A stretch of 64,000 nucleotides of DNA from Blasia pusilla (Eukaryota), in contig CM114271.1 of the NCBI GenBank assembly GCA_050084515.1, positions 13,950,001 through 14,014,000 of the forward strand, in the 5' to 3' direction. Below the pieces are notes generated by a model that worked only from the letters and a program-made list of their open reading frames with translations, had not been told where the DNA came from and searched no databases. This document shows, one piece after another, positions 1 through 53,300 of the stretch (positions are counted from its first letter, which is position 1; the number at the start of each line of letters is the position of its first letter). A program made the position numbers and the translations under genes.

Positions 1-2263
1 TTGGTGTGCAACAGACAAAGGTAGAGGCTATTTCATGCATTCCATTCCCTACAAATGTGAGTCAGGTTCGTGTATTCATGGGATTGGCTAACTTCTATCG
101 ACGGTACGTCAAGGGTTCAGTAAGATTGCAAAGCCACTGACCTTGCTGACCAAGGTGGATCATGAGTGACACTAGGGGGATGAGCAGGAGAGAGCATTTC
201 ATCTGCTCAAGGAGAGATTGACGTGCGCGCCCATATTGAGGAGACCGAGCAAGGAGCGTCCTTTCTAGTTGCATACCGATTGGAGCACGTTGGGGCTTGG
301 AGCTGTGCTCACCCAACATGACAATGATGGTAGAGAGTTCATGGTGATTTACGCTAGTCACTCGAACAACACTATAGAGGTGAAGTATATCTTGTATGAG
401 GGTGAGTGCTTGGGTGCAATGTGGGATGTTGCACATTTCAGGTATTATTTATTTGGCAATCCCTTTACCGTCATTACAAATCATCAACCACTTAAGTGGT
501 TGATGGAGTCCAACAAGCTTACAAGAAAGCTTGCAAGATGTGCTCTGTTGTTGCAGGAGTATGATTTCCAGGTGGTGCATAGACTTGGGACGCTCAACCA
601 AGATGCAAATGGGTTAAGCTGTACCCCATGCCCGAGTGAGCGAGATGCGACTGGAGCTCGTTGGCATAGTGAGAGTGATGAGGAGTTGCTGCCCAGATGC
701 CACGCGTCAGCCTATTTGGGCTTGTTGGCTATAGAGAGCCAGATTTTTGAGACTTCGATGGCGAGGTGTGATGGAGAGTCCTTAGATCCACAGGCCGGTG
801 AGGATCCGACAGGTAGCCGAGAAGTTCACGACGATGGAGTGGTCTTGGAGTACTTGCGTACTGGTAGTGTCATGAGCACAATGGGTGCTAGAGAGCGGGA
901 TCCGATCCTATAGCGAGCCAGACAATTTCGGTGGGAGGAGACACATGTGTTGCAAGTCTGGGAGGATGGTAGAGTACGTGTAGTGCCTCATCCTTCACAA
1001 AGAGCATTTTTGGTGCGTGATGCCCACAAGGAGTTGGATCATTTTGGAGTGAAGCGGACATACAACTTGCTCCACAAACAGTATTGGTGGCGAGGCATGC
1101 AGAGTGATGTTCAACAGTTTGTTGCCATGGGCATGGTTTTTGATCGGGTCCGGACCTCGTTCAATGCTCCGACTCCAAAGTTGCATCCACTTCTCATCAT
1201 GGATTTAGGTTATAGATGGAGTTTGGATTTTTCATGACCTTTACCTTTGACGGAGCACCATAGTCTTTATGTGTTGGTGATGGTCGAGCACTTCTCAACG
1301 TGGATAGAGTTGGTTGCATTTCTTGACAAAGCGAGTGAGGGAGTAGTGTATGCCTTCGTAGATCGAGTGCTAAGTCATTACGGCACGCCAACCGAGGTGT
1401 TGACAGACCAGGGTACGGAGTTTCATGGGGATTTTTAGGCCTTGTGTGATTAGGCGTTGATCGACCACCGCACCACTTCGCGAGATCATCCTAAGGCAGA
1501 TGGACTAGCGGAGAAGGTTGTGCAGACGATGAAGAGAGGATTACGCAAGTATGGCTTGCAGAGAGGTCACCTAGGAGATTGGGACCTCCAATTGTCGTGG
1601 TTGGCGATGGGATACACATTCAACATGCAGGCATCCTTAGTGTCTTTCTCACCGTATTTGCTACTTTATGGACGAGAGTCGGATTTACCTGCAGCCATTC
1701 GTCGAGATGTTGGTGAGGTATTGAACCTTGATGACCCTGATGTATGGATGCGAGCATCTTCTCATAGGGTTGACTTGTTTCGAAGAGTGATGCCCATGGC
1801 GTTTGAGAACTTGGCGATTGCATTGCATCGGGATACGCTGAGGTATGCGACTATTCGAGGAGGTGGTTATCGACCTACTATCCGAAGGTTTCATCAAGGA
1901 GACTATATCTACTTGCAGCAGACGGCATCCATGACTTTGGATGTTACTCTAGGGCACACCATCTTGAGAGTGTGTGAGATTCTGCCATCTGGTGTTCTCT
2001 TACTGGAGGGACGCAATGGTATGGTTTGGAAGGACCATGTGCATAACTGTGCGCCATGTCACCTTCCTAAAATTGACGGTATAGTTTATCCAAGCTTAGC
2101 TGTAGTTCCTGCAGGCTTGCGATGTGTGTTGTGTGGTTCTGCCCGTGGTGCAGCCACTATGCTAGTCTGTGATGGATGTTTGAGAGGATGGCATATGGCA
2201 TGTCTGACGCCACCTCTCACTAGGATTCCTCAGGGACAATGGATGTGTCCCAAATGTACATAG
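1..2263 (+). pseudogene. Ty3/gypsy pol 3' part (end of RT, RNase H, integrase, C-terminal PHD finger), disrupted; 5' part lies outside the window
   Basis: ORFs 269-913, 947-1237, 1247-1438 and 1457-2263 are all one frame broken by in-frame stops. RNase H motifs: LHTDWS..GLGAVLTQ, EGECL, ITNHQPLKWL, LLLQEYDF. Integrase: H..H FGVKRT, WSLDF, LTDQGTEF, GLAEK. The order RH then IN is gypsy. C4HC3 PHD at 2123-2260. Confidence 0.93.
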
Positions 2264-2445
2264 AGTAGGTAGTTATAGATTCCGACTTGTGTTTATGATA
2301 TGGATGACAAGAAGGCGACTAACGATAGGGCCACATGAGCGCCTGGCTTTTTTGCTCTTAGCGTCCGACAGATGTATGTCATGGTAGGTGAGGATAGATG
2401 GCTATCTGGAGTTAGAGGGACCTAACCACCAATTAGGGGGGCGAT

Positions 2446-3175
2446 TGGAGATATTTTGGTACTTCTCGTCTCGTTGTTTGATGCCATGAGTTAGCATTGG
2501 ATCGTGCGTGTTTGTGTGTATGTTCGGTGACAGCGATGTATATTTTGTAGCGATGTGTATGCGCATGATAGCTGTCACGTCTTTTAGGAGAGATTGGAAA
2601 AATCTAGTAGAGCGCCTTTGGAGATAGGGTAGCCTCAAGAGATCGAGGATGACCTATTGAGGCCACGGGTAACCAAAAAGACCACGTTTCCCCTTCGTTT
2701 CGGCTCATTTGGAGCCATATAGAGAACTTGCTATTTCTGAAAAGTTTCCATTTAGAATTCAGTTGACTTTCTACTTTGGGAAGTGGCCCTTGACCCACTA
2801 CATCAGGTCAAGAGCCAAGGAGATGACGTGCGAGCATAAGTTATCGAGGAGAGAGCTTGGGAGAGGGAAGGGGATATACCTCCAAGAGAAAGAGCTCTCA
2901 AGCTCATTCTCTCTTTGTTGAACCTCTTGGCATGAGGCGGCGGAGCTATGGTCTTCTTTTCCTTGTGTGTGTAACCCAAACCTCTCATTAGGAGAGTGGG
3001 TTTGGTTTAACATGAGAGAGAGTGCACACCATGGAGAGCTTGGTGTGAGATGTTGAGAGAGATTTCATTGATTTATTGGAGATATTTTCATACTTCTCGT
3101 CTTGTTGGTTGGATGCCATGAGCTAGGATGGGATCGTGCGTGTTTTTATGTATGTTTGGTGACAGCGATGTATAT
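2446..3175 (+). repeat. 3' LTR-like unit 1 of the gypsy element (A-B-A' structure)
   Basis: Follows the PPT-like AGGGGGGCGA and starts TGGAGAT. The first ~125 bp (2446-2570) recur, truncated, from 3077. Confidence 0.7.
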
Positions 3176-3212
3176 GCTCAAGAAAGACCTAACCACCAGC
3201 TAGAGGAGCGAT

Positions 3213-4137
3213 TGGAGATATTTTTGTACTTCTCGTCTCGATGTTTGGATACCATCAATTAGCATGAGATTGTGGGTGTTTGTGTGTAAGTTTGGTAACA
3301 ATGATGTATGTTGTGTAGCGATGTGTATGCGCACGACAACTGTCACGTCTTTTAGGATACATAGATGAGATCTAGTAGAAATCCTTCGCACGTAGTGTAG
3401 GACAGTCTCAAGAGGTCGAGCATGACTGTTAAGGCCACGGGTAAACTGAGAGAGCATATTTCTCCTTCGTTTTGGATCATTTGGAGTCATATATAAAAAC
3501 TTACTATTTTTGGTAAGTTCCCATTTGGCTCTAGTTGAATTTCCACTTTGGGAATTTTTCTTGAAATTTTGCAAGTCTAGATAAATCTAAAGGACCTACT
3601 TTTCTTACAATTTTTGAAAAAAAGGATTTTTTGAATTAGAATAGGGTACTTATCTTCATAGACAAAGAGCAAAGAAAAATTGTTGTCAAGAAATGTAATT
3701 AAGATGAAGCAGGTTTGAAGATCTTGACCCACTACAGCAGGTCAAGAGCCAATGAGATAACCAGCACGCATAAGTTACTATGGAGAGAGCTTGGGAGAGG
3801 GAAGCGGATATACCTCCAAGAGAGAGAGCTTGAGAGCTGATTCTCTCTTTGTTGAACCTCTTGGCATGAGGCGGCAAAGCTCTCATCTTCCTTGCCTTGC
3901 GTGTGTAAACCAAGCCTCTCATTAGGAGAATGGATTGAGAGAGAGAGAGAGAGAGAGAAATTTGTGCACATTTGTGAGATCTTGTTGATGGAGAGATCTA
4001 CTTGATTTAATTGGAGTTATTTTCGTACTCCGCATCTCGATGTTTGGATGTCATGAGCTAGCATGGGATTGTGCGTGTTTTTGTATGTGTTTGGTGATAG
4101 CGATATATGTTGTCTAGCAATGTGTATGTGCCCGACA
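3213..4137 (+). repeat. LTR-like unit 2 (A-B-A), diverged tandem copy of unit 1
   Basis: Preceded by a copy of the PPT region (gacctaaccacc..agaggagcga). TG...CA ends. A repeats at 3213-3338 and 4012-4137; the B part matches 2571-3076 with an extra internal segment. Confidence 0.7.
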
Positions 4138-4139
4138 AA

Positions 4140-4740
4140 GAGAGCCAGATTTGTTGTCAACTACTTAACGAGATGTGGCGTAGGTACTTGACCTCGACGA
4201 TCCACATGTATTGATGCGAACATGTTTTCAACATGCTAAGCTCTTTCATAGCGTTATGCCTATGGCATTTGAGATCTTAGCTATTGCTTAGCATCGCAGT
4301 AGTTTTAAGTACGCGACTACGTGTGGAGGAGGCCATTGACCATAGATTTGGAAACTCCATGCTGACGATTATATCTATCTATTAAAGACGGTGCCGAAGA
4401 TATTAGACGTGCCAACGGGATGTACTACTCTCCAAGTACGAGAGTTTTTCCTTCAGGAGTCCTTATTTTAGAGGATAATGATAATACAATTTGGAAGGTT
4501 CATACGCATAACTATATGTAATGTCATCTTCTGAACGTGGATGAGATTATTGATCCGAGTTTGGAAATTATTACTACAAGCTAGAGATGTATGTTGTATA
4601 GGTCTGCTAGAGGAGCAACAGAATGCTAGTTTGAATGGAAATTCTCGTTGATGTCATATCTCTTGTTTGGCAGTGTCTCTTGACTTGGTTGCTCAAGGAC
4701 GTAAGCTTTATCCCAAATGCACATAGATATGATAAGTAGA
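4140..4740 (+). pseudogene. Highly decayed gypsy integrase C-terminus/PHD fragment
   Basis: Colinear similarity to ~1675-2260 (e.g. atgcctatggcatttgag, ggaggaggc, tctgctagaggagca, atgctagtttg). Confidence 0.75.
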
Positions 4741-9848: not shown

Positions 9849-10399
9849 CTCAACACATGACCGAAAACCCTGGCGGATGGATGTTCAATTGCCGTCGATC
9901 CAGTTGTGCGACACCAACCGCTCAATTCTTCCGCCGACCATTTCAGACGGCGATCAAACGCATTAACGCCACCGCCGATTCCAATCCACAATCCCCCGCT
10001 TCATCTATTCCTCGCCCTTCGCCACAATCCACATCTCCAGCCCGCGAGAATCCCCCGAAGCAAACGGCTACAATTACTCTTTCTTACCCCAATAGTCGCC
10101 GCATCGCTTCACTTGTCCGACGTCGCCTCCTCATGATCCTCCCGCTCTCACTCGAGAGTTACTCCACAATCCCAATTTCTGGCTTCCGCTGCTCTTCAAC
10201 CTCCGCTTCCGCGGGATCTTGAAAGGAGAGGCAGAGTTTAGGGTGTTGGTGGCGGAGACACGACACTCATCCCTGCTACATTCGCCCTCATTCAATGCGC
10301 AACCCCCAGATAGCAACGATAAGATTACCATGTTTATTTTTCTTTTTCATCAATTCATTTTGTAATTAATTATGAGTTTGAGAAGAAATTAAAAAAATT

Positions 10400-10917
10400 G
10401 GATAATTATTATTATAAAAAGTAGTGGAGTTTAATTTTGATTGGTGAGATGATATTTATAAAAGAATGGCTTAATGGTAATTTTGTGTATTGATTAAAAT
10501 TTAAGAATAATTATTGTAGGAAAAAGTGGGATTTAATTTGATTGGTGAGGGTTATATTTACAAAAGAATGATTTAATGATGATTTTATGTATGTGAAAAA
10601 TGGATTAAAGTTTAGTAATAACTATTGTAGGAAGTAGTGAGATTTGATTTGATTGGTGAGGGTTTATGGGGGAGTCGTTTAGTGATGATTTTATGTATAT
10701 GAAGAGTGGGTTAAAACTTGGATAATAATTATTATAGGAAGTAGTGGGATTTAGTTTGATTGATGGGGATTACATTTTATGGGGGGAGTGGTTTAGTGGT
10801 GATTTTATATATGTGACGAGTGGGTTAAAAAAGAATTTCCACTCTTTAATTTATTTTTTTCTAATATTTTTTTGCAATAATATTTCTTTTTGTGCATAGC
10901 ACGGGCATGCTAACTAG
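10400..10917 (+). mobile_element. AT-rich ~105-110-bp tandem repeats (about 4 copies) ending in a Helitron-type 3' terminus
   Basis: Repeated ataattattgtaggaa.tagtggga.tt.atttgattggtgag units. Ends with hairpin gtgcatagcac followed by CTAG|T at 10914-10917. Confidence 0.6.
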
Positions 10918-12375: not shown

Positions 12376-13189
12376 AATAGATAGATAGATGGGTTTTCAT
12401 CAATCCCCTTTTTGTCCAATGGTTTTTCCATCTCCATGTTTTATGCTGGTTTCCTTTCTTAATCTCGTGTTCCATTTACTAGATGTTCTTATGTCGATCC
12501 ATATTTTTATTTATGACCCATTTATTCAATTAGGATTCCCATTCCTATCCTTATATACGTACCAGTGTTAGCCCATACTTTTAAATCGCCACTCATAATC
12601 ATGTTTTTTAATTTTTTAATTTTATCTTAAATTAAGTTCGAGTGATCTTATTGATTCAAAAGGAAAGAAATTTTCGTGGATAAAAGTGTCAAGTGTCAAC
12701 AGAGGAGAAGTTTGAAAAATGAAGAAGCACTCTCCAAAAATAACATTGATAATATTGATGGGGGAGAGGTTTGATTCATCTCATATGGATTGCAATCATT
12801 GTCTTCATTTGAGAAATACGTGATTTTTACCTATTGCACTCTTTTTTTAAATAGTGGGTCTTCAAGATTTGCACTATGCCCAAGTTAATGGGTATTTGAG
12901 GCAGGCTCTAGCTGCGGGAGACATTGTTGTTAAAGGCCCTCTTCGTGGTAATTATCTTTCTCTAGCTATAGCTACTATCATTTTTGTTGTCAGTAAATTT
13001 AGCTTGGGGGGAGCATAATGATAAGTTCTTCATATGACCTCCAAATAGATCCGCACAAAGGGAAAACCTATTTTAATAGGTTACGCTATTTCCTAGCAAG
13101 GTCATCCATAAACTATTGGACTCAACTTCGAGTCTCTATTGAAGCATCGCGTAGAAATTCATCATTCCACTATAAAAGACGTGATAATT

Positions 13190-13620
13190 ATTGTGCGTAT
13201 ACACATCGCTACACAACGTACATCGCCGTCACTCACTAACCACACAAACACTAGACTAACTCAATCATCCATTGAATACAACCACGGATGAAAGTCATTA
13301 CCAAAATATATCGAATCATCCCCTAGTTGATGGTTAGATGCCTCTAACTCCAAATAGCCATCTATCTCTACATATTTATGACATACATCTTCAAGATGAT
13401 AAGAGAAAGAAGGTCGGACGTCCTTACATGGGGCTCTATTGTTAGTCACCCTCTTGTCATCCATGCCACTAAAGCAAGTCTAAATGTATGACTACATATC
13501 TTATGTGCATATGGGGCATATCCATCGTCCCAAAAGAACTCGGACCAGAGATGACAACAAATATACCATATGCCATCCTCTCAAACAACCATCATACTCT
13601 AGCATTATAGTTGTACCACT
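13190..13620 (-). mobile_element. Decayed gypsy 3' end (PHD tail, 3' UTR, PPT, LTR start)
   Basis: Reverse-complement similarity to ~2150-2565 (ggatggcatatgg, ggatgacaaga, tagatggctat.tggagttagagg). Confidence 0.75.
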
Positions 13621-13709
13621 ACATTAATCCCTGAAAAAGGGTTAAGTCTCTAAAATTATCTCAGATTTGGCTCATATTTTAGTAAGCCCCCATAAAACTT
13701 GTGTCGATA

Positions 13710-17668: not shown

Positions 17669-20600
17669 TCACTGAGGAGGCACAAAGAATTCTAGCTCAT
17701 TTGCTCGTCGATAAAGAATTGTAGACGCTTCAAGCCTGCAATCCAAATCCCGCCAGCAGCACAGTAATCAACAACCCACGTCCATCATCAAAGAGAGCCT
17801 TCGAAAAGCACAAATTCAAGGATACTCAATCTGGCCCCTAGTGGACAAAAGTTTCCAAGAGCTCCACTGTAAGAAATCCAACATACCATGCTGGTCGGAC
17901 TACGAAGCGCCCAGTGGAGAGTGCCCAATTAACCTGCACAGATTAATAAGTATTAGATCATTCATACATCACTAATAGACAATCTCCAGGCGTCTTGTTC
18001 TCCATTAGAGGGATTGTGACCCCCATGGTGCTTCAGAGTCACCAGAACACGCGTAGTGCCCCTTACTCTAAAACTTGTCCTGTCAGAGGGAGCAAATCAC
18101 CAAGTGTTTACCTTGTCTGTTCCTGGAGATATCGCCACAACATGGGTGACCTCGTCATCAATTTTCGTGGTGCAAATGGCCCCAAATTGCTCTGCAGTTC
18201 GCCAAAGAGGATGAAGATGGGGTTGAGCTTCACCAACAGGAAAAATGCGGCTGAAAACAACTTTGCACCCAGCTAAGACCTGGCGTTGCTCTGCTGCAAG
18301 TATGTCCCGCACATCTACTTCCCTTAACCGTTGGTTCTCGAAAAACCTCTTATGAATTCTGTCAACTACCTGTATCAGACAACCAAGAAAAAGAGAACCT
18401 TCAGACTTCCACTGAACAATAAAATGTATTCATTTGAATGATGATGGCAGCAAATTGACCCCTATATCGTATCAAAATATACGCAAATCGAAGGTAAGAA
18501 TGCAAACCGTTAAGACCGATGCAATCATGCCATCAGCTTCTCTCTCATCATGTCCTACTTCTAAAAGTGAGGGACCCCCCAGTCCAAACTGACGCCTGCT
18601 GCAAGGAAAATACATATATCTGCCAGATAAAAACAACAAGAACACCTGTCATGAGATACTTTCTTCTTTTGTTCAAATGATGGACAAAACTGAAAAACGT
18701 TCATTAGCATTATCAGCAGTGAGAAACTTGTGTTCCAGCTTACCTTTCAACAACTATGAGATTAGGGCTGTGATGAGGCCAAACTCGAGCTGAATCATCA
18801 ATGATGAGAACAGCAGATTCCATCCCAAGCACCCCATCCAGATCTTTGCTCTTTGGCAACACATCATCACCATCACCATCATCACCTTTTGAAATCACCC
18901 TCCCCGCAAATAATGTCCCAGTGGGATCCAAAAGCTTTGCCATCTCAGTTGCATACACTTTGTTACCCATGGTGTATACATGAAGCTCAAACAGCTGACT
19001 TGCCTGCAATTGTAGATGAGGTCCAGAAAACACAAGGATCAGATTCCAGCATGGTAAAGAGATTTTCACCCAAACGGTTCGACATCCAAGTGACACATAC
19101 CCGTGCAAGGAACTTCCATATGCCAGGACGCAACTTGGTCCACATGCTCATGTGAGGAAACCTATACAGCTCCCTTTTCTCCAGGCTCTCTCTATTAACC
19201 CTGCTCCGCTCTGCAGCTTCCGCACTGCGAAGTCGATGCTCCCATTCTGGTTCGATTTCTGAAAACTGAAGCACATCAAAGTTGATCAAGGCAACAAATC
19301 AGGAAGTCACACCTCCTACAGTCTGTGGTTCCAGCCTCACGATCATCAGGTTGAGGGACTGGAGACAAGGAATTGGAAGGTCCACAAGTGCATTTGGAGT
19401 AAGATCTTGTACCTTTGCAGAGTTAAGTAGTGTGTGATCAAGATCTAGGACTAGACACAATTTCCCCGCAGTAAACATTCGATCTTGCTCTTCCATTCTC
19501 CTCTCCCTCTCTAACTGCACTGAACGACGCTCCTCTTCAGGAAGCTCTTCCAGCAGCTTTTCCAGACTAGGGTGCACTTGACTTGCACCCCATTGTCCAG
19601 GGCGCCATTTAGGCTTCCTTGATCCTGTTCCCAGACTTGAAGACTTATCCACCTGAGGCTGGGAACTTTTCAACTCAATCGAGACTCCAGACGCATCTGT
19701 ACGAGTAAGGATGTCATCAACATTAACTTCCCCAGGAATCTTCCCAGCATTAAGCTCGGTAGCACCTGTGATTGAAACAAATTGAGCTGTTCCAGACTGA
19801 ATAGGTTGTTTGCCTTCATTTGAGGATGGCAATAATGAGGGGTTCCCACCAACCATTCCTGCTAAACTAGCTAGCTTTTCCATAAAATGGGGTGCAATAT
19901 TTGGCAAGGCTGTAGCCTGCAGGGACGTCTGCATCACTTCTCTTTCTTTCCTGGCAGTTGGCCCCTGATCATCAATTGTGCTTCTACCAGCTGAAGACAA
20001 CTCAACAAAACCACCTTCAACACCATTACTCAAATCTACCAGAGCCACACCACCATCTCCTCGCAGTATATCATAAGCAGAGTTATCAGCTCTTTCGACA
20101 CTACTTTCCAGAAGGGCTCGACGAGGATCTCTGGGCTTCATTTTCCGCTGACCAAGTTCACCAGTCTACAAAACCACACACTTAGATTAGCTCCAAATAA
20201 GCAAGTTAATCAATCAAGGAGACCAACAATATGTCTCAAGCATCTACCTTCACCTACTGAAAATAACCCTTCTAAGGGGCACACTGCCTTATGGCCAACT
20301 CTCTTGTTTTGTAAGGTTATTTCACAGTAACCCTGATCCAGAGAAGGCCCAACACAAGCAAGACTTACTTGCTGACCAAGATCCACCTTCTGCCACATAG
20401 TCTGCTCGAGACTATTTAGTAAATCCTGGTGAAGAATAATTGCCTTGCCCCCGCCATTCATCTTTTCATCAATCAGTGGTCCCTTCATGTCTGGTGGCAC
20501 CACGGATAGAACCTTTTCATCCACCTCCATCGCTATTGGTTCCTCATCTGATGTTGAGAACATTGGAGAAATATTATCATCTAGCCAACCTCCTAGACCT

Positions 20601-23600
20601 GTTGATGCATTTACATTTTCTTGTTCAAAATTCTGAAGCTCAGTTGTTCTCTCAGCTTGGAACTTCTGTCGCTTAGTATTTCCAGGATCTTGGTTCTTAT
20701 TCCCGTCATGCACAACACGCTTTCTGTTCACCTCATTTCCTATCAAACGAGCATCTTGGAGCGCTTGCTTCTCAATTGAACTCATAGGATTGATTGGATC
20801 CTTATCAAAATCTACTGATGAATTCTGGAGTCGCCTTCTAGGGTCACGACTCTTGAAATTTCCCTTCCCTGTAAGTGAATATGCTACATTTTTCATAGAT
20901 TCAGGTTCTTCGGACTCCCGAGTAGGCGAGGGCAGCATAGTAAAGTCTGCAGATTTAGCCCTTGGAAATTTTGGTTCATTGAGAGGAGTTGGGGAATCAA
21001 GGCTTTGATTGCAAGTCACATTCTGATTTGAAGTGGCCAAAACGTTGGGAGATACCAATTTTCCAACCCAATGTGACTGCTGGAAACTGGATTGAGTAAT
21101 GTCTGAGACTGATGTGACTATCTTCATTTCCTTGGAAGGTGGTAGTGGGCCAACTGAAACGTCCTCATTTTCATCTGATGGAGTTGGACTAGGCAGTCGG
21201 TCAACGGAGTACAAGGAAGTGACCCCAACGTTCTTCTGATACGGTAATAAGGTTCCGATGTCATGCCTGGGCGGCCATGGTTTCCCTATGATAGACTCAT
21301 CCTTAACCACTTGTCCCTGCACTAAAGCTCCAGACACAGGAACAGAGCATGATATTCCAGCACCTGCCGGACTTAACTTCTCCCATTCCTCCTCCTGCAC
21401 ACTGTAGTTCTTAACAGGCTTCTTGTATCCTGGTGGAACATTTGGATTGTCCTGCTGTGAGGAACTTGCTGGAAGGCCGACATGTGCCCTCAACTCAACA
21501 GAGTTACCAGTAAACCCATCTTGAACAATTTTCACTGGCAACCGGTGGTCAGCTTCACTCCAGGGCTGATATCTTGCCATTGAGGAATTGAGCGTGGCTT
21601 CTGGATGGAGAGCAACCGCTGCTTGATCAGAATAGTGAACCTGAGATGATCTCTCTGAAAGCCAACCCCAACCATTAACTGGACCTGAAGATCCACCAGA
21701 TCGGCTGCTATGTGTACTACCAAAGAGAGAATTTGTACGGGAAGCAGCAGAGCTTTGGGCATAGGCAAGAGCCGCTGCAGCAATGGCAGCAGCTTCCTCT
21801 GCTTGTTTTGCATCGGCAAAGCCAAGAATTCGCCCACCAATGTTGCCATCAGAACTCTTCTTCTCCAAGGTATTCTGCTGTTTCGTTGTTGGAAAGTTAT
21901 GTTCCACAGTCTCTCGTTGCTTCACATCTTTTTCCTTACTCTTCTTGGATGCAAGAAACTGGTGCTCCCGTGGATACTGGACCTTCTCAGCTGCATCTCT
22001 AGCATAGCGTCCAGTAGTAGGCATTGTTTGCATCATTACCTCCAGCTGCACAGACAACAGTCCAACGAAAAGTTAATACCACATGAACAATTGGACAGCC
22101 CAAAATCCGGAAACATGTAGAGCACTGCGTATCGGCTTCTGTAAACTGAACTTATTGTTAGAAGGAACCTAGATCTCTTCTATGTTTCCCTCAAAGTTAA
22201 TAAAACCATCAAATCTTAGCCCACATTGCTTTGCCAGAAATCTAGCCGGCGCTTTTCATTTCTCACCTCACGAGTTTGCTTGGTCGTGAAAAGTTTCTGA
22301 CAATAACCATTAGCAAGCTCCAGCAACCTGCAGAAGACTACGTCAGCGCTGCCGCAATACACACTCGAATAAGTCGTTTGACCAAAAATGAAATGAGGAC
22401 AGAGAAAGTATATTTTAGCAGACCTAGGGAAAATGTTCTTGTCACGCTCTTGCTCTATTCCACTTGCTGTGTTGCGAACCTGCCACGGACCAGACATATC
22501 CATTAATACTAGCCACAGATGTCTCGGTCCTTCCTCTACCCGGTACAAGTATGCAAGTTACGATGCAGCTGTTTCGGGATCAAGTTCTTAATCCCTTACA
22601 GCATAGACAGCTCGAATGCCTGCGAATGCCTGCCTAGCAAGGAGGGAGATTTCGCGAGGAGATCCTTCCAGGCGTCCTTCCTGTTCAACAGATTTCCTTG
22701 GAGTGTGAAACTCATGCAAGAGTCTCAATGCTTTGTAAAGCCGGTCGCATACATCAATAAAGGACCTGCAAAGCATGGGGTGAAGTCAGCAATTCCAGTG
22801 ATCACCATTGGGCCCTGATAGCACATGTAAATAGCTTAGTGGCAGAAGCAAGGACACAGCGAAAATTCATCGAGTTAAAAAATGAACCATCGAAACGGAT
22901 TCTAATGCCTTCATCTCCTTCTACTTACTTTTGGGCATCCTTCACTGTCACATTCTTCACCAGACTAGTTGCCGAAGCTAGACGCCTCTTTCTTTCATAA
23001 TCCAGAGATTTAGATTGCCGGCTTCTACGTGAAGAGTAATCGTCTGACGGAGACCTGGAATTGGAGTAGGCTTTCAACACGGATCTGCTGTACAGGTTTC
23101 CTGCATCCTTGTCTTTTCCAGAGTAGTAACCTGAAGTCTCTGCATTGGACTTCGTACTCTGACGACTCAGATCTGGTGATTCCTTGGATGGGGAAGAGGC
23201 TCCGGCGGGCACTGAACCCAGTTCAATTTCCCCCTCTTCAAGTTCTCCTTCTTCACGATCCTCTGCGTCATTTTCTTCACTTGCCAAGTGAACTGCCGCA
23301 TCTGATGAGGTTTTGCCACTCTCGGTGAGTTCGTCAAGTCTCCCATTCGGGCTTTGAGACTCGGATCGTCTCCTCCGATCCTCAGCCTCATACTCTCCCA
23401 CATCTTCGCCCTCATTCGCTTCTCTTTCGACTCTCCCACCGAGTCTATCTTTCAACGAGCGCCTCTCTGAGACGCCCCAAGTTTCCTTTTCAAAACAGCG
23501 CAACCGCCCTCGCCCTGAGTCCGTGCCGCGGTTGTTGTCTATCGGTGACAGATCATCACGATCTTCAGAGGACCTCCCAGGCCTTCTGTAAAGCTCCATC

Positions 23601-24184
23601 TCGCGACTATAATCCCTGGCCACATTCTCTGCCGCCCAGCCTCCCGACCCTGGCGGTGCTCCGGGGTTTCTCTCACCTCTAGAACTTGTTGGGGTCGGGG
23701 AGTCGACGGGAGGAAAGCTCGGGCGACCCGAAACGGCCTGTGCCCAGGCAAAGTTGTACAGATTGGAACCATAGGCACCATTTGGAGGATTGAAAGAGGA
23801 CTTATCCTTCCTCCACGAAGGCTTGTCTTCCCCCCAGCCCTTCCTATCGTGACCATCGTCATCGAGTTTACCCTGTTCTCTTGAATCTCTTCCCTCATGT
23901 CTGAAAAAATCCGTCCGCTTTCTACTTTCCGATCTAGTAAGCTCACCTAATGCCATCAAATCATCAAGACTCACTCTTCTGTGCAACAGAGGCACATCCT
24001 TGTTCTCTTGTTCTTCCTGCTCCTGCTTCTCCTGCCCTGCTTCCTCGTCATCCTCCCCCTCCCCATCATCAACCCTAGACTCGGGCTCTTCAGACACGGA
24101 GGCAGGGGGCTCTTCGTCTGAAATTTCCCCTTCCTCATGCTCTTCCAAACACTGATCGTTGGGGCTAGAGACTGTTTCTGCCAT
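17669..24184 (-). CDS. CPL3: RNA polymerase II C-terminal domain phosphatase-like 3 (FCP1-type HAD phosphatase plus BRCT), 12 coding exons
   Basis: KLCLVLDLDHTLLNSAK (DxDxT), MWTKLRPGIW, LHVYTMGNK.YATEMAK.LDP, IIDDS..VWPH, BRCT region GCKVVFSR...THVVA..PGTDKVNWA, N-terminal EEGE motifs, YNFAWAQAV and RDPRR motifs. Approximate exons: 24184-22929, 22765-22600, 22479-22424, 22327-22267, 22045-20369, 20165-19413, 19265-19101, 19003-18744, 18619-18508, 18369-18112, 17933-17887, 17735-17669. Confidence 0.93.
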
Positions 24185-25482
24185 TACAATCAACTGTTGA
24201 CAATCCCTAAAAGATGGCCACGCGCAGAAGCGGATTCTTGCAACCCGAATGCCCGGCGTCAAAGAGAGACTAACCCCTGCTGAGATCGGGTCGATAGAAA
24301 CCTACACACTCCAAGGAGAGTGAGTATCTCCACATTTCCCATTGCACCTCTTTGGACGTAAGGCCACATAATTGAAGACCACACTTGTTCTCCCTCTACG
24401 CGACCCCCATCCACGCCATGTGATCCAAGTCAAATCGATCCTTACCCGATGTTTTACAAGCTGCCTGCGCGATGTGTCTTGTTTATATTCGTTATTACAG
24501 CCTTATGTTCATCTAGCCAGCTAACTCTTGTCTCCACATCCCTGTGTACAAGTTATCTTCGGCCGCTTCTTTATGAACGCACATTCGACCCATCCGCCTG
24601 CACGGAGTCTCGGTGCACGACCCTAAGGAGACAAAACCGAGGACACGGCACGTCTACTCGTAAGGAATCCTATCCGAGAGTGCGCGGATCAAAGGAGCGC
24701 CTCTACATCCTCCGCTCTTGCTCCGGAGCGGCTTCCTCAGGAGGGCGGCAGTGATAAAAATCCCACACGAGGGACCCATTCCAGTTCCACAGGCATCGAA
24801 TCGCGTCGGCACGCGGTTTCTAGTCGAGGGGATGGCGTGGGCTTGGCTAGGCTTTCGCTGATGCAATCACAAACCGTGGAAGGCAAGCGGAGCGATCGTT
24901 GTATCGCGCCCAAGGGTGCGTTCTGCCACACGGACAGAGGAGAGAGACTACTGGTAAGGCTCACTCGCAGAGAAGAAGAATGAGAAAACCAGAGCGCGAG
25001 AGGGAAGAAGGAACGGAGAGAGCAAAAGCAGTCGCCGGTCGAAGGGGAAGCGTGCGCGTGTGGCTCTTCCGGGGCGGACTGACGGAGAGAATGAAGGCGA
25101 GCATGTGCGACTGGACATGCAATTGGCTGCTTCTCTGTCATGCGCCTCCGACTCGTAAGCACCGGCATAGAGGTGGTGGTGGTGGTGGTGGCCCCTCACT
25201 CCCCGAACGTCACTCCCGCCTCCGGTTAAAAAATGAGTTCCCGGCATTTAATAGAGGGACTAATGTGGATTCAAGGGTTATTTAGGGTAATGCAGCCGGT
25301 TCTCAACTAACGCAGTAAGGCCCGAATCCTGGTTTGGTTTACCTCAACCCTCGCTCCTGGGTGGGAACCCAAGGCGTCTCGGATACCATAGACTCACTAA
25401 ACCCTCTACTAGCATCCCACTAGGCTCCGAGCGGGTGTGCTCCGTCCACACGCCCGCCAAGTAAATGCCGGGGACGCCCTCC

Positions 25483-26809: not shown

Positions 26810-29800
26810 ATGGTGAAATACACAAAATATTCCACTACATTACAATGTGATACTATCCAGACCCCACCGCCTGGTCCTTTTTTAAGAGAACACCTCATTT
26901 GGTATGGTGACCGAAAGGAGGCATGGATTCCTGCTGAAAGGGTACATGACTTCATCCGTGGTGAAGAATATAGACCGCATTATCAAACTACTTTCTGAAT
27001 CAGCAAGACTGATAAATCAGGACACAAGAGTCTTACCATTCGATATTGGTGCGCATATGGACCGCATGATTGTAGGGGTTCGGTTTGGACATCTTTGCCC
27101 AACAAGGTCTTTGACCCTAACATTCGTCGTATAGGGGGCAAGGGTAGCAGGCCAGAAAACCAGAGCACACGCCTTGGACTATCTCAAGGACGCGGATGCC
27201 AATTTCACTTCGCTGTAGTCTATCCATCAGATTGTGTTGGCTTCTGTATGATAAGGCATCTTCATTCAAACCATGTGGACAAGGAAGGTCGGATATGCCA
27301 TGGTGACTTGGATAAGACAGCAGATATTGCAAATGCAATTGTCGCCCCGAAACTAAGTTTGCACTGCAGGGATTTTGTAGAGCGCTTGTTACGAGTGAAT
27401 GTAAGCCCCAAGAATATCACGAAAGAGCATAGGAGGTGGATTCGCGTACACATCCGTGAAAACCCCAATCAAAAACATGCATGGGGTAGGGACGCCATGC
27501 TCAAGCATCAAGACATACTAAATATTAAGCATTCTATGCGAAGGCGAGAAGGGGGATATGACGGAACCGATGACGCTACTGCAATTCATCACTGGGTACA
27601 AGCACATCCTGAGAATGTAATTTACTACAGGGAGGCTATTTCCAAGTTGAACCAGTCCTTTTGCCTTGTACTTTCCACACCTTGGATGCTCCAGAATCTC
27701 TTAGAGCTAGGGAACGGCGGGGCCATCTCCATGGACGCAACCCATGGCACAAACACCTACGAGGTTAGTTGGCCTTGATCCTATCATTATTGTAGAATTG
27801 ATGGAGCCATGGAGCAGGGAACCGGAAATGCTCCTACTTAAGGATTGTTTGAAATGCTGGATGTTTTGAACTTAGTGTAAAGTGTATTCAAAGAATACAT
27901 GATTCAAATGTGTGATTTCCACTACTTTCAATGGACATTATAGGTGAGTCAATGCGTTTATCTTCATCGGTAACCATTCCCTTTTGTGCGATTTTTCTTA
28001 CTTACACCCTGGTGCCTGTTTTCATTTGTCTTCTATTGTGAACATTATGTTATGTGTGTTCACAGTATCAATTATTCACATTGCTGGGTTTTGATAAGTT
28101 CCAGAATGGCCTGCCATTGGTATGGGCAATCCTACAACGACATCAACACGAAGATCTGGTAGAGACCTTGTCCCAAATCAAGGACTGGGCACAGAGGAAT
28201 ATACACTCGAGCATGCAAGATACAGAGGCAAATGAATGGAAGCCTTCATGCTTCATTGTGGATGACTCGAAAGAGGAACAATCTGCTATCCGAAATGTAT
28301 CTCCAGGTGTCCCTATTGACCTCTGCCTATGGCATGTTCGCAAGAACTGGTTAAAGAATCTGCATCAACGAGTGCGTTGTCCAATTACGAAAGCGGACAT
28401 GAACAGAGACTTGGGTGGTGTAATGTACTCACGTGATGAAGGTATATCATCAACCACCCTGATAGTACACTTACATGCTTTTCTCTTTCCCTGGATGGTT
28501 TCCTCCACATACCGCTCAGTGACTAATAAATGATTTGCATATGCCATTGCAGATCCCATCGACGCCTCCTATCGGTTCATGCGCAAGTGGGTTGGATCAG
28601 AACGACACTTTGTGAAGTACTATGGAAGCTACTGGCATCCAAAAATTTTGAACTGGGCCAAGGGATACCGCTAGCACGCAAGGTCCAACCAAGATACGAA
28701 CGCTGCAATCGAAAGGTGGCACCACACTCTAAAAATGCACCTAGCATCCAGCATGCCCACCAAGCCAACAAGAAAACTGATATGGCTTGTGCAAATGCTC
28801 ACTGGTGAAATAGAAGATTTCTTCTGGTACCTAGGCTTCTTGAAACGAGAAGGCATGGTGAGAAACAAGGCCATACAAAAAGTTATGCTCATGGCAATTA
28901 AAAGGGCAAATGACATACCGGATAATCATGTCACATTTGATTTGGTAGATGGGAGGAAATGTGCGAAGGTGAAAAGTATTTCAAAGCGGATGTTTGGCAT
29001 GATGTGGTCGACTACGATACAAGAGATCGCTTGTACATGTCCTCGTACAACGAAGGGTTCACTTGTAAACATCAGGTCTGTCTTCATACCCGTCTTTGAC
29101 GTGATTCAGGGTCTTTACATCAGATTTCAGCAAGTTGAATTCCATCTGTTTTAACACACTCCGTCTGCAGGTAAAATGTCTTCTCCTCTGTGGCCACACA
29201 AAAGTTCAGTTGTTGTCTTGCTTAGGAACTCGCTTTGGAAGCAGAGTGGGTGGGTTTGAAAATTTGGTGCAAGAGCCATACAAGGATGAATTACATGATG
29301 AAGATCAGGAACACGAAGATGGAGATATTGGCCATGAAGGACAAGACCATGTGTTTGTTGAACCTACAGGAAGAGATCCGCCACCAAAAACCACCACCAA
29401 GGATGTTCGAGACATCATGGAGAAATGCCTAAACGCTACCCTTGGGGTTCCATTCTCAGATATGCTCCTAGAACACTTGTTTCAACTAGTGCAGAAGGAT
29501 TTAGATTCAGTTTTGAACCTCAAGGCCAGGGTAGAGACTAACACTCACGTTGAAGGTAATGCTAATGACATTGCCACACACTTTCCTGAGCCGTTTGTGG
29601 GGAATGAATCACAGAACCGTAGCCTGCGTAGGCGCCTAATTTGGCTAGACCTCTTGCATTTAAAACAAAGGTCCCGTGGTCCTGTTAGAACTCAGCCGAG
29701 TTTCGAAGAGCACCAAGTGGAATCCTTCCACAGAGTGAGGAAAACTAAGTTTTTGAACATGGAGGCAGAAATGGAAGGGTCGGCATGTATTAGTTTGGAC

Positions 29801-44716: not shown

Positions 44717-46053
44717 TGAGAGTAATTGGGAAAGTTCATATCCATCTTACCGTTAAAAAGTTAATATCCGAGGGTTGAGAACCGTGCAGAATAACTTGCA
44801 TTCTACGGGCTTTGTACTCGGAGTCGAGTATTGTATGGGCTATGACTAGTGATTTAATGCATTATTGAAATAATTGACAAGAAAATAAAACTCTTAGTTT
44901 GACCAATAAGATGGATAAAGTAGAATATGTATGGAGATACGTGGAAACATATATCCAACCAAAAAAATTAGGGTGGCAAATATATTTCAATGTAAATTGG
45001 AGGTGTTGTTTGATTTCAAATTATTTTAGCATACAATTGATGTATCGCTGATGTGTGTTGTGGTGAAAGAAACGATCATTGCTTTTAAAGTAGTGGGTAT
45101 GAATTGGTTGAATAAGATAATGGATTGAAACCGTTCACTATAAGAGTAGTGTGTAGATATGAGCATAAATATTCCATTTGTGAATAGATATGGCTAATTT
45201 GCAATTGAATCTATCTCTTATACACCATGCAATTAAGCAAAGGAATTATGAATATCGAATGTTACTTGATTGGATTCATATATTGATTTCCTCTATCATG
45301 AATGCCTTTAGAAAAGTATAAATTTTTTATGGACAACACTTTTACAAATATGAAGATGGAAAAAATTGTGCTACATGTGTTCAGTATGCACTACCGGTGA
45401 TGAAGAGACAACTCTGTGATCACAATCGTAGCATGGACTCTAGCAACTCCATAATAAGTTTAAGATCTTCTTATATCTAATATTTGACATCTTTATAAAA
45501 TTGATCTCAAGCTTATCGTAGATACTACTCTTCAACTTGAAGTTTAAATAAGTGGGTATGACTATCATCACATGTTGAGTTTAACATATCCCTCACAACT
45601 AATATTTCTATCGACAACTAAGGTGACCTCTTCTCAACTTTGTTGAGTGTCACGCACATGTTTTGATAAACATTGAGTGGAATTGAAGGCCTCCTTAAGA
45701 TGTGATGTGATTGCTCGAGATAATCAGTGTCCAAGTCGTTGTTAACACGCACATCCTAATGTGTATGTGAAGTAAAACCATTAACTAGATGATAGTTAAC
45801 GTTGTCTTAACCTTGGAGTAAAAAAGAAATAGAAGTAAATATAAGAGAAAGTCTAAGTGATAGTTGGGAATGAAACTAGAAAATAGAGACTGCTAGAACT
45901 GTACATATTGCAATGGATAGGTAAGAGAAAGCCCAAGTGGTAGCCAAGAACTAAAAGAAATCAAGAAATACAAACTAATGCAATATGTCGTGTACATATT
46001 CCAATGTATATGTAAGAGAAATTCTACCTGAATATATATAAATAAAAGATTCT

Positions 46054-46753
46054 ATTGTCTAAAAAATGAATCACAGAATGATAGTTTGAACTAAATTTTT
46101 GGTGCGGATTGAAAAATATGATCACAATTTACAACAAACAAGAGAATCTAGATCTCTCATACATTAAGTTGGAACAAATGCATAGTGCAATTGTAGGAGT
46201 TTCAAAATCATTTATGCCAATGCATTGTAGTAAAATACTAGAGACAATGTACATGAACCATCTTCATAGAAAGCATATCTAAAAGTTATAGTAGTTAGAT
46301 TCACTATAGAAGACTTCTTAATTAAGCCACACACTTGAATGCAAGAGACATAAAGGTGACAACTATGAGATAAGAAGCATTCAAATCTTCATATAGAAGT
46401 AAATATTGTCTAAACAATGAATTGAAAATTCATAGTGTCAACTAAATCATTGGTGTAGATAGAATATGGTCATAATTTACAGCAAATAAGAGAATACACA
46501 TCACTCGCATATTTGAAGTTGGAACAAATCCAGAGTATACCTATACGAGTTTCAAGATTATTTTTTCCAATGGATTTCAGTAAAATACTAGAGACAAAAT
46601 ATATTAACCATCTTCGTAGAAAGCATATCTTAAAGTTCTAGAAGTTAGATTCACCACACAAGACTCCTTAATTAAGCTACATATTTGAATGCAAGAAGTG
46701 AAAAGGTGAAAACTATGAGGTAAAGAAGCATTGATCTCTCCATGTAAAAGTAA
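46054..46753. repeat. Diverged ~350-bp tandem duplication
   Basis: attgtctaaa..aagttggaacaaat..agtaaaatactagagacaa..agttagattcac occurs twice at a ~350-bp offset. Confidence 0.85.
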
Positions 46754-50379: not shown

Positions 50380-53300
50380 TCATACACATACACATTGCTA
50401 CAAAATCCACATCGCTAGTCACATCCACACCATACAACACTGATCTTCCCAATATACATGTAGATCTAGTGTCTCCACATAAACAAAAATGAACTTATGT
50501 ATGTACATTGAGACCGCACAATTGCTCTCCTAGTTGGCAATTGGGTCCCCCTAACTCCAAATAGCACATATCACCTCTACCTGACATGACCTACTACCAT
50601 ATGAGCTACCATACACATATGTAGGACCTAACCATTGTCTCATGGAACTACATCAAGAGAGAAGGGGAGGAGAGGGGGGCTAGACACGACATATGCCACC
50701 GTGTAGAACAACCATCACACACCAACATGGTGGCTGCAGCCTTGAAGATCCACACAACGTGTACGTAAGCCCGCAAGTACCACTGCAAAGCTCGAACCCG
50801 TTGTCTTGTCCATATTCAGAAGGTGACATAGCGCACAGTTGCGCACATGACCCTTCCAAACAAAACCATCCCGTCCCTCCAACATGAGGACTTCGGTCGA
50901 TAACACCTCGCGCAAATGCAAATCATGCACCCTCCAATGACATTTAGCGTCGTGGCTTCCATCTACTGCAAATACACATAATTCCTAGGATGGAAACTCA
51001 TAATCCTTGGATGATAACTTCCTCCACGAATGATTGCGTACCTCAAAATTTCCCTATGTTAACACATTATTGAGCAATAGTTACGTTTTCAAACGCATGG
51101 GCATAACTCTATGAAAAATCTCCGCCCAATGAGAATATTCCTGCACCCACACATCTAGGTTGTCAAGATCAAACACCTTCGCCATATCATGTTGAAAAAT
51201 TGCAGATAAATCCAACTCTCTCCTATAGAGAAAAAAAGTACGGTGAAAATGATGCCAAGGATGCCTTCCGATTGAAATGATACCCCATAGCCTACCATGG
51301 CAAATATAGGTCCCACTCCCTCAAATGTCCTCGTTATAAGGCAAACTTGCATTACCCTCTCTTCATCATTTGGAATACTCTCTCTGCCAACCCATATGTC
51401 TCAAGATGATCTCTAGAAGTGGTGCGGTGATCTATTAGTGCATGATCACACAAGGCCTAAAACTCTCCCTTGAACTCGATACCTTGGTCACTCATTGCGT
51501 GCTTAGTTATTTTGGTGCACCTCCACCGGTGCACCAAAATGACTAAGCACGCAATCTAGAAATACATAAGCCTATCCCTTGCTTGCCGTGTCCAATAGTG
51601 CCACCAATTCTATCCACTTGGATAAATGCTTCATTGTGACCAACACATACCTCTGATGACGCCTTGTGAATGACAAAGATCCCACAAAGTCTAAACTCTA
51701 CCGATAACCTAATCCCATAATTGGAAAAGGATGCAAACAAGGAGTATGGGGATTGAATTATGCTCACACTCAATCACACACCATACATCTAGCTATAAAT
51801 TGATGAACCTCAGTATGCATGTCGCGCCACCAATACTAAACCTCAAGTACGTTGAAATTACACTTACTCCAAAATGTCCCAAATCCTCATGGGCATGTTG
51901 CACTTCACGTGCTCTCTAGGAAGGACGGGGCACCACCCCTACCTTACCATCATCCCACACCAGTAAAATGTGTGTCCCCTCCCAATTGAACCTCCTAGCT
52001 CTATATAGGATCCAATCCCACTCCCTAGCACTCACTATGCTCGCTCTGATGCCAGTACATAGGAACTTCACAACCTCTAGACCCTCATGGACAAGGTTGC
52101 ATGAAAATGGAGAACTTTGGACATGCCGCTCGAGTACTCATGGCCCGCATATTCGACTAACAAAGAAAGGCAGATGGGTGCCAACCGGGCACCATCTCCT
52201 CATCACTCTCTCCGTGTTATCAAGCTCATGTGTCGTCCATTTTACTCGGACATGGATTGTAACTCAATCCATTTTCATCCTAGTTCAACCAAAGTGACCT
52301 ATGAACCACCCCAAAATTTTAATCTTGTAGTAATAGAGCCTACTTTGCAAGCTTCCTCCTAAGCTTATCGGACTCTATCAACCACCTTAACGGTTGATGA
52401 TTAGTGATAAGTGTGAAAATATTGTTGACTAGATAGCACATTAAATATACCTTGGCCCACACTACAACCAAACACTCTCGTAGGAGTTGACCTTTGCCTT
52501 TGCAATGTTATTCGATCAGCTCACATAAGCCACAATGAACTCCCTCTCCTCGCCATTTCTTTAAATGAGCACCGCTCCAAGATCCAACACGATCCAATCC
52601 GTATGTAACAAAAATAGATGATCCCTAACTTGTAAAATGGATGAGGAGGTCAACCTATCCTTGAGCTCTTGAAATGCTCACTTCTTATCATCTTCCCAAT
52701 TCCAAACCTGATAAAGTCTGATCGACAAGGTCAAAGACTTCGCAATCACACTAAAACCCTTGATATATTGTTGATAGAAGTTTTCTAGTTCCATAAATGC
52801 TTAGACTCGACTCACATATGTAGGGCATATAATCTCCATAATAGCCTTCCCTCCATGTTTGACTATTGAACACCTAAACCACATGGGTATATGGTTGTCC
52901 CAATTTAACCTTGTTTGTCGATTGATAAGTCGATAATTCCCACACATCCGCCTATATGTCCAATTGTCATATATATCCTTCTTTTTCGGCATGATTGCGG
53001 TAGATGCATACTCTCCGTGCGATATCTCTGTAAGTTCTGCCTCCCACAAGTCTTGACTCCTATTTTGAATCAAGGCTCGCTCTATGTCAGAATATTGTGG
53101 AAGATGGGTGTATCACTAGCCAAATCTATCCATATCGTAGGACTCTTCAAAGTACCCAAGTCTCTCGTATTGAAGGCAAAAAAACTCACATGCCCTCTTA
53201 AAAACCTATGTATCCTTCGTCTCTCTCCTCTTGTCAAATCAAGATCTATCATAGGCTTCTAAGTCTCCATTGTGACCTCACTTGAAGAAGACGTGACCTC

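Follow-up and report, generated by a model that had tools for sequence, protein, structure and literature searches.

A Ty3/gypsy retrotransposon whose integrase ends in a PHD zinc finger of the C4HC3 type is present in a stretch of 64,000 nucleotides from Blasia pusilla (GenBank assembly GCA_050084515.1, contig CM114271.1, forward-strand positions 13,950,001 to 14,014,000), which we refer to as the window and by whose own numbering all positions are given. This integrase-terminal PHD finger is the trait of an entire lineage of green-lineage elements, and its predicted ligand, as judged from sequence and fold, is the unmodified N-terminal tail of histone H3.

The PHD finger of the copy in question (copy 1) is encoded on the plus strand at positions 2123-2257, which specify CVLCGSARGAATMLVCDGCLRGWHMACLTPPLTRIPQGQWMCPKC, followed by a single threonine and a TAG stop codon (2261-2263). 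It makes up the final 46 residues of the pol frame, and translation terminates one residue past the last cysteine. When the 269-amino-acid (aa) open reading frame (ORF) containing it was searched against Pfam, the PHD family (PF00628) was reported with 43.9 bits (gathering cut-off 24; E 2.4e-11), and the last 56 aa by themselves scored 48.2 bits; PDB sequence matches and an AlphaFold2 model, both described below, identify the same domain. A regular expression for the C4HC3 pattern, run over all six frames, matched the window once and 100 shuffles of it not at all. The initial annotation of this DNA had read an intact, in-frame C4HC3 motif at the end of pol from the letters alone, and these searches bear this out. 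The PHD-encoding DNA had no match in a phage collection.

Upstream of the PHD finger, copy 1 comprises the 3' part of pol (end of the reverse transcriptase [RT], RNase H, integrase), which can be translated in a single frame from position 3 to position 2263 (+) without any frameshift; the 5' part is missing, as the window begins inside the element. Eight internal stop codons (at 89, 167, 173, 266, 911, 1235, 1436, and 1451) precede the terminal TAG, and copy 1 is therefore a dead element. Pfam recognizes RNase H at 269-913 (+; RT_RNaseH, E 2.4e-26; RT_RNaseH_2, E 1.7e-15) and the N-terminal H2C2 zinc-binding domain of the integrase at 914-1237 (+; Integrase_H2C2, E 1.7e-12), while the catalytic core (1220-1516, +) was placed by its motif positions and by the Pfam rve domain found at the equivalent site in relatives. 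The core is interrupted by the stops at 1235, 1436, and 1451; we read the motifs SLDFS, LTDQGTE, and DGLAEK as its putative D, D, E triad. Copy 1 shows in one frame the pol order of Ty3/gypsy elements (RT_RNaseH, Integrase_H2C2, integrase core), and the same order of RVT_1, RNase H, H2C2, and rve was found by Pfam in 30 polyproteins of relatives. The intact relative P0124 aligns with the window by tblastn from 110 to 2260 (60% identity over 717 aa), and identity of copy 1 to P0124 and P0125 is 58-60%. Among solved structures, the best match of P0125 is the Ty3 Gag-Pol protein (7q5b; E 1e-105), followed by the Ty3 RT (4ol8; E 7.5e-80). Both the domain order in the window and this match of an intact relative support the assignment to Ty3/gypsy that had been made initially.

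The integrase continues beyond its core into a C-terminal module of the SH3-like GPY/F type (1898-2062, +), which extends from GDYIYLQ to a conserved CAPCH(LP) and was delimited by family conservation and the AlphaFold2 model. In copy 1, the module was assigned from position and pattern, and its name is taken from the accessible text of PMC2774666. Only 20 residues separate the end of CAPCH(LP) from the start of the PHD finger. An AlphaFold2 model of the segment encoded by 1781-2260 (alignment A1, 75 rows) folds the GPY/F-type module into four strands with a predicted local distance difference test (pLDDT) value of about 76 and the PHD finger with values of 81-87; the overall pLDDT is 63 because the linkers are disordered. 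In chromoviruses, as described in the parts of PMC2774666 and PMC6317226 available to us, it is the chromodomain that occupies this site after the GPY/F-type module. The positional parallel between the two readers that had been drawn from the sequence is thus accurate. Copy 1 does not have the C-terminal chromodomain that marks a chromovirus and carries the PHD finger in that place; Pfam found no chromodomain in the window ORF, and none in 30 long polyproteins of relatives (E<=1e-4).

A search with the 269-aa ORF yielded 291 proteins of near length at E<=1e-3 and 132 longer ones; among the 120 longer proteins listed, 116 contain PF00628. We also searched 1.84 billion cluster representatives with a query limited to the integrase C-terminus (window positions 1454-2092). 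As this query excludes the PHD finger, the resulting count for the lineage is free of ascertainment by the PHD finger itself. It matched 1490 representatives at E<=1e-3, of which 691 reached 1e-10 and 224 reached 1e-30. In the best 150 of the 1490, all of them members of the clade, an intact C4HC3 motif directly follows the match in 124 cases and a broken yet recognizable one in 10; nine sequences end early and seven are partial. A PHD finger or its remnant was consequently present in 134 of 134 evaluable relatives. A search of the ESM Atlas returned only generic Gypsy clusters.

Conservation in an alignment of 179 tails is 96-100% at the eight zinc ligands and 92-99% at M87, D91, G96, P104, P110, and W114; at the level of the aligned sequences, this degree of ligand conservation is the mark of purifying selection on the PHD finger. 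Intact members of the family (P0124-P0132), one of which stems from a transcriptome assembly, possess a pol ORF 1033-1171 aa long, in which RVT_1, RNase H, H2C2, rve, and the PHD finger follow one another. The initial annotation had regarded the PHD finger as a lineage trait, and had named its absence from intact members, or an out-of-frame position in them, as the finding that would speak against this. The former claim agrees with the uniform presence of the domain behind the PHD-free match, and in the intact pol ORFs the finger is in frame. The clade is wider than the bryophyte and lycophyte lineages that the annotation had in mind, and reaches Klebsormidium and the chlorophytes. Named hosts are Marchantia polymorpha, Calypogeia fissa, Sphagnum fallax, S. 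magellanicum, and Klebsormidium nitens, and among the chlorophytes Haematococcus, Pleodorina, Tetrabaena, Chromochloris, and Chlamydomonas eustigma.

To place the window copy within the clade, we calculated a quick IQ-TREE phylogeny from 62 rows of the integrase C-terminus plus PHD finger (short rows P0061, P0063, and P0238 excluded), rooted at the midpoint and without an outgroup. The window copy is sister to a group from Marchantia and Calypogeia (Shimodaira-Hasegawa-like approximate likelihood ratio test [SH-aLRT] 94), and both lie within a clade of 20 rows (99) that includes P0128 and P0136, the latter bearing a DNA methyltransferase (DNMT; see below). All named chlorophyte rows are located in the other main branch of the midpoint-rooted tree (SH-aLRT 87), the algal-type rows P0151, P0201, P0143, and P0340 are found at the base of the window's branch, and a second Calypogeia lineage is placed elsewhere. 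We also observed that P0015 from Marchantia and P0016 from Calypogeia are 84% identical over 218 aa of integrase C-terminus and PHD finger. The two liverwort classes are old enough for this to be a high value for a transposon, and it therefore suggests either strong constraint or horizontal transfer.

Which ligand might such a PHD finger bind? The best PDB sequence matches of the window PHD are CHD4 PHD2 (1.4e-16), PHF12, KDM5B PHD1 (5e-14), KDM5A PHD1, and Lid, followed by KAT6A/B, DPF2/3, KMT2C/D, ATXR5, PHF21A (BHC80), AIRE, BAZ2A/B, WSTF, ORC1b, UHRF1/2, and RCO1; the K4me3 cage readers BPTF, ING, and TAF3 are not among the 60 matches listed. Identity to the solved cellular PHD fingers ranges from 36 to 50%. 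With Foldseek, the modeled PHD finger superimposes on those of DPF3b, BAZ2A/B, MOZ, ATXR5, UHRF1, BHC80, and KDM5B PHD1 at 0.6-1.7 A over 45-52 columns, and according to their entry titles, several of these fold matches are complexes with unmodified H3. What these closest solved relatives read is the unmodified N-terminus of H3.

The window PHD shares with the cellular PHD fingers of this kind the pattern [ML]-L-x-C-D-x-C-x2-G-[WYF]-H ... P-P-L-x2-[VI]-P-x-G-x-W-x-C-P-x-C. Two residues before the zinc-binding histidine, at a position that we take to be the cage tryptophan site of BPTF/ING-type readers, 239 of 259 family PHD fingers carry glycine and a single one carries tryptophan, and the window PHD has no aromatic residue at the usual methyl-lysine cage position. 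The aspartate after the third cysteine, present in 243/259 family members, and the P-x-G-x-W segment are presumably the places where the unmodified-H3 subtype holds the H3 N-terminus (A1/R2). By sequence and modeled fold, the PHD finger is closest to the subtype that reads the unmodified H3 tail (K4me0/R2), which we regard as its predicted ligand. The guess made at the outset, unmodified H3K4 in view of a missing cage tryptophan, fits both the closest solved PHD fingers and the prevalence of glycine at the cage position. The identity of the domain, its position, its frame, its conservation and spread in the lineage, and its subtype in terms of sequence and fold are what we consider established. 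Differences from the PHD fingers of KDM5A/B, CHD4, AIRE, BHC80, BAZ2A/B, ATXR5, and UHRF1 are that the finger is part of a transposon integrase and that the liverwort branch is devoid of the acidic first loop.

A further feature of the clade, newly found here, is that its members often encode a C5 DNMT of the KnitGypsy-Dnmt3 type. A DNMT-like segment, homologous to the C5 DNMT part of P0136, was detected in 85 of 357 family proteins, with the Pfam DNA_methylase family (PF00145) above its cut-off in P0136, P0221, P0224, and P0229. Of 68 proteins spanning RT to PHD, 45 possess it (40 between RNase H and integrase, four before RT, and one elsewhere); three lack it although 250 aa or more precede their RT, and in 20 the sequence before RT is too short for a judgement. 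The existence of two sites for the DNMT in pol suggests either rearrangement or two captures. The proteins with the DNMT before RT are P0136, P0322, P0325, and P0340, and a further, decayed copy of the element in the window (copy 4) is arranged likewise. When homologues were sought with the DNMT part of P0136 as query, only four proteins passed, and when P0136 was compared with the PDB, the list was taken up by RT and integrase entries.

In copy 4, the decayed C5-DNMT-like segment (about 55137-55911) is located upstream of RT on the minus strand, within a feature of 55137-56440 defined by tblastn and a family profile, and before it comes a stretch with homology to the N-terminal end of P0122, a transposable element (TE)-derived gene model of Marchantia. 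Residues 88-246 of P0136 match 55649-55198 (-; E 2.5e-9), residues 6-253 and 264-321 of P0122 match 56440-55663 (E 1.7e-36) and 55308-55137 (E 0.002), respectively, and a profile of 63 family DNMT segments matches 55165-55500 (-; E 7.2e-19). Copy 4 contains in addition an inverted DNMT-like duplicate at 54595-54966 (+; DNMT profile E 2e-17), seen as a repeat of 54469-54914 against 55706-55226. The window remnant had no match in the PDB. Since a DNMT remnant lies upstream of the RT of copy 4, the window element was of the type protease(?), DNMT, RT, RNase H, integrase, PHD, like P0136. In P0122 itself, a DNMT fragment is joined directly to the integrase C-terminus.

Algal-type proteins (e.g., P0146, P0148, P0158, and P0175) run about 300-360 aa past the PHD finger; of 146 tails of at least 120 aa, 141 are mutually alike. 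A model of the P0146 tail (alignment A3; mean pLDDT 84.6) shows a small beta-barrel at residues 361-405, for which there are weak Pfam Tudor hints (E 8.4e-5 in P0183 and 0.067 in P0146), and a Rossmann domain at 482-655 that resembles M.TaqI (Z 11.9, root-mean-square deviation 3.4 A, 157 residues), METTL5 (Z 11.7), and KsgA (Z 11.7). From its modeled fold, the latter domain is probably class I methyltransferase-like; a DPWxG motif is conserved in it, an NPPY-type motif is not conserved in these algal-type tails, and Pfam names no family for the domain.

We propose, with a probability of roughly 0.55, that the PHD finger anchors the intasome on nucleosomes whose H3 tail is unmodified, which would bias the choice of the integration target. 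In this clade, the PHD finger always comes right after the SH3-like GPY/F module of the integrase, and it would hold the intasome on nucleosomes whose H3 tails carry no K4 methylation; insertion would as a result be biased away from active promoters, a parallel to the chromodomain of chromoviruses with histone H3 methylated at K9 (H3K9me). What we infer are binding to histones, the mark recognized, and any effect on target choice. That Gypsy integration can be directed by chromodomains is on record (Gao 2008, as cited in the accessible parts of PMC6673714, PMC6317226, and 10.1101/2021.11.30.470311). The element resembles chromoviruses in having a domain of the histone-reader type fused right after the GPY/F-type module at the very end of pol; it differs in that the reader is a PHD zinc finger, with a predicted preference for the unmodified H3 N-terminus rather than for H3K9me. 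A likeness is also found among the TEs of Chlamydomonas with PHD fingers, which include Gypsy elements and for which guidance of insertion has been suggested (PMC9940879, PMC8557442, as far as their accessible text goes). One of them, the PHD-bearing Gypsy-7a_cRei of Chlamydomonas reinhardtii, has intergenic insertions 2.6 times above expectation (PMC9940879, accessible text), and like the window element it is a green-lineage Ty3/gypsy Gag-Pol with a PHD finger suggested to steer insertion.

Several observations weigh against the proposal. The authors of PMC9940879 were, according to the text available to us, unable to separate targeting from selection, and Gypsy-7a_cRei is only a candidate member of the window clade. 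The four copies in the window reside among ordinary genes and a fragment of a Mutator-like element (MULE) with no obvious chromatin bias, a number far too small to judge. The element-encoded DNMT opens another role for the PHD finger. The first loop of the window PHD (GSARGAAT) has no acidic residues, and of 90 terminal-type PHD fingers, 43 have none and 18 have two or more in this loop; two or more D/E are present in 119 of 143 algal extended-type PHD fingers. It is by such first-loop acidic residues that PHD fingers of the KDM5, AIRE, and BHC80 types contact K4. Because the acidic first loop has been lost, specificity for K4me0 is uncertain in the liverwort branch, whose PHD fingers may, from their sequences, differ from the algal type in K4 discrimination.

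It is this loss that invites the alternative that the PHD finger binds something else, either another histone state (K4me1-3, K9me3, or K14ac) or a host protein by its free N-terminus, and tethers or regulates the integrase in this way. The ligands of solved relatives are indeed varied, since entry titles name UHRF1 with PAF15 or Stella, DPF3/MOZ with H3K14ac, and Ehd3 with H3K4me1. Yet the nearest sequence and fold matches all bind the H3 tail, the conserved aspartate (243/259) and the P-x-G-x-W segment occupy the site where we presume the H3 N-terminus to be held, and no aromatic residue is found at the cage position, all of which makes a different ligand rather unlikely. A much simpler explanation, that the finger is a chance motif, a one-off capture of a host exon, or an artefact of gene models without any role, might appeal to the eight in-frame stops of the dead copy 1 and to database matches some of which are TE fragments annotated as host genes. 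It is extremely improbable in view of the Pfam E value of 2.4e-11, the zero matches in 100 shuffles, the in-frame position in intact pol ORFs, the presence in 134/134 evaluable nearest clusters, and ligands conserved to 96-100%; a chance or artefactual origin is ruled out by ligand conservation, the intact pol ORFs, and the result of the PHD-free query.

The DNMT suggests a use for the PHD finger of a different kind. Instead of serving target choice, the finger might serve the element's own C5 DNMT by recruiting or activating it on K4-unmethylated nucleosomes, so that the element would methylate DNA at and around its copies. The ADD domain of host DNMT3 does just this. The frequency of the DNMT segment (85/357 family proteins and 45/68 RT-to-PHD proteins) and its remnant in copy 4 are in line with such a function, and since the integrase-PHD part of the algal type comes immediately after the DNMT, one processed protein may hold both. 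We nevertheless doubt it: the PHD finger is universal (134/134) and the DNMT is not (three proteins without it), RT, RNase H, and the whole integrase lie between DNMT and PHD in the streptophyte type (P0136 and copy 4), and the finger is joined to the integrase C-terminal domain, the site of targeting modules in other elements.

The presence of PHD fingers in retrotransposons is by itself not new. Many retrotransposons encode one (de Mendoza et al., PMC6673714), and PHD and Chromo are the readers most often fused to TE proteins in 172 genomes (Grau-Bove et al., 10.1101/2021.11.30.470311, accessible text). The fusions covered by the accessible part of the latter study concern other element classes and other positions of the PHD finger, and a Gypsy clade of the green lineage in which an integrase-terminal PHD finger is universal is not described there. 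REXdb works with eight polyprotein domains of which PHD is not one, and the accessible text of that paper contains neither "PHD" nor "Marchantia" (PMC6317226). REM1 of C. reinhardtii (Perez-Alegre 2005), grouped here with the PHD-bearing Gypsy elements of that alga, is described as a chromovirus with a truncated and reversed integrase that has kept its chromodomain (PMC2774666, accessible part). Compared with these Chlamydomonas elements, as described in the portions of the papers available to us, the element of the window is of a shorter type that terminates with the PHD finger. Proteins from the Chlamydomonadales (Pleodorina, Tetrabaena, C. eustigma, and Haematococcus) are themselves members of the window's clade.

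The closest precedent for the DNMT is KnitGypsy-Dnmt3 of Klebsormidium nitens, a Gypsy pol with a C5 DNMT, the acquisition of which was presented as confined to the lineage of K. nitens (de Mendoza et al. 2018, PMC5890265, accessible text). P0136 and P0128, which fall into the same clade as the window copy (SH-aLRT 99%), share this DNMT-in-pol architecture, and the K. nitens protein P0133 consists of integrase plus PHD finger. One difference is that the DNMT of the window is decayed, and P0136 need not be KnitGypsy-Dnmt3 itself. The accessible text of PMC5890265 nowhere uses the words PHD, Marchantia, or liverwort. A description of an integrase-terminal PHD clade in bryophytes, or of its link to DNMT elements, was not found in the literature covered, which lies outside Repbase, theses, subscription papers, and bioRxiv supplements. 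What is already known, then, are PHD-bearing Gypsy elements in Chlamydomonas and TE-PHD fusions in general; what is added here is the breadth of the clade, the universality of its PHD finger, and the association with a DNMT, which extends to a liverwort-like genome.

Chromoviruses are the textbook case of retrotransposons that aim integration by a histone mark. If our proposal is true, a second large and old clade carries a different reader at the same site of the integrase, and the guidance of integration by such readers has evolved repeatedly in plants. Through the link between PHD and DNMT, the published case of Klebsormidium is extended to the chlorophytes and to the genome of at least one land plant. 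A more far-reaching idea, which we put forward as speculation, is that this green-lineage Ty3/gypsy clade possesses an epigenetic toolkit of its own, an H3-reading PHD finger and a DNMT3-like methyltransferase, with which it might insert into K4-unmethylated chromatin and methylate the DNA there. The elements would in this way copy the de novo logic of their hosts (read K4me0, then methylate), and the toolkit would have been kept from algae to liverworts and Sphagnum instead of being a Klebsormidium oddity, and in chlorophytes the PHD finger would be followed by two additions, a small beta-barrel and a domain like class I methyltransferases. Chromatin maps and transformation exist for Marchantia, so that the hypothesis can be tested there. 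A warning for annotation may be added: several gene models of Marchantia and Calypogeia that are called "PHD-type domain" or hypothetical (e.g., Mp_2g13720, Mp_1g18210, Mp_7g09570) are pol fragments of this retrotransposon.

The window contains three further copies of the element. Copy 2 is a decayed integrase C-terminus at 4139-4723 (+; tblastn E 6.9e-25, and translation) with PHD remnants at 4558-4617 and 4655-4723 in differing frames. Copy 3 (13173-13623, -; tblastn E 4.5e-6 and 2.1e-8) consists of a PHD remnant at 13504-13623 and about 330 bp of 3' flank, which is homologous to the flank of copy 1 (blastn, 2145-2586 against 13619-13173, 73%). Copies 1, 2, and 3 have in common an end of the form C-P-[K/I]-C-T-stop, which is written YPKCT-stop in copy 2 and CPICT-stop in copy 3. 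Copy 4 (50675-53267, -) is a decayed pol reaching from the RT N-terminus to the PHD finger, with the RT core deleted and a PHD remnant at 50675-50792. It was found by tblastn with P0124, P0125, P0127, and the window ORF; the ORF itself matches 50675-51441 (-), and intact relatives extend the match to 53267 (P0127: 53267-52957). Decayed PHD fingers at the same site in three diverged copies had been noticed in the initial annotation, and tblastn and translation recovered all three.

A check of copy 1 for long terminal repeats (LTRs) found, downstream of the element, two tandem units rather than a clean LTR, the other side being beyond reach as the window starts inside the element. The units (2419-3173 and 3186-4108, +; 755 and 923 bp; delimited by self-BLAST and alignment A2) are about 80% alike, a direct repeat of about 110-120 bp stands at both ends of each, and immediately behind them comes the decayed integrase end of copy 2. 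They may represent terminal-repeat material of unusual layout. A DIRS-like arrangement of terminal repeats is indicated for KnitGypsy-Dnmt3 in a figure legend (PMC5890265, accessible part), and the tandem units after copy 1 could fit such a layout. A metagenome scan for intact elements gave six loci, all of them decayed; L003 and L004 had no ORF of at least 150 aa, and L001 had none at the match.

Elsewhere in the window, short tandem duplications are present at 10394-10830 and 46053-46753, with unit lengths of about 100-110 bp and 350 bp. Long open frames (288, 620, and 458 aa) in 19302-24301 (-) matched no Pfam family at E<=1e-5, and are adjoined by a fragment of a NIF-like phosphatase gene (18743-19147, -). 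A MULE transposase fragment is located at 28042-28530 (+; E 1.7e-10), and 60513-63405 (-) holds the pieces of an alanyl-tRNA synthetase gene (tRNA-synt_2c, E 1.9e-77; tRNA_SAD; DHHA1). With the NIF phosphatase, the alanyl-tRNA synthetase, and the MULE fragment nearby, the copies of the PHD-bearing element share this region with ordinary genes.

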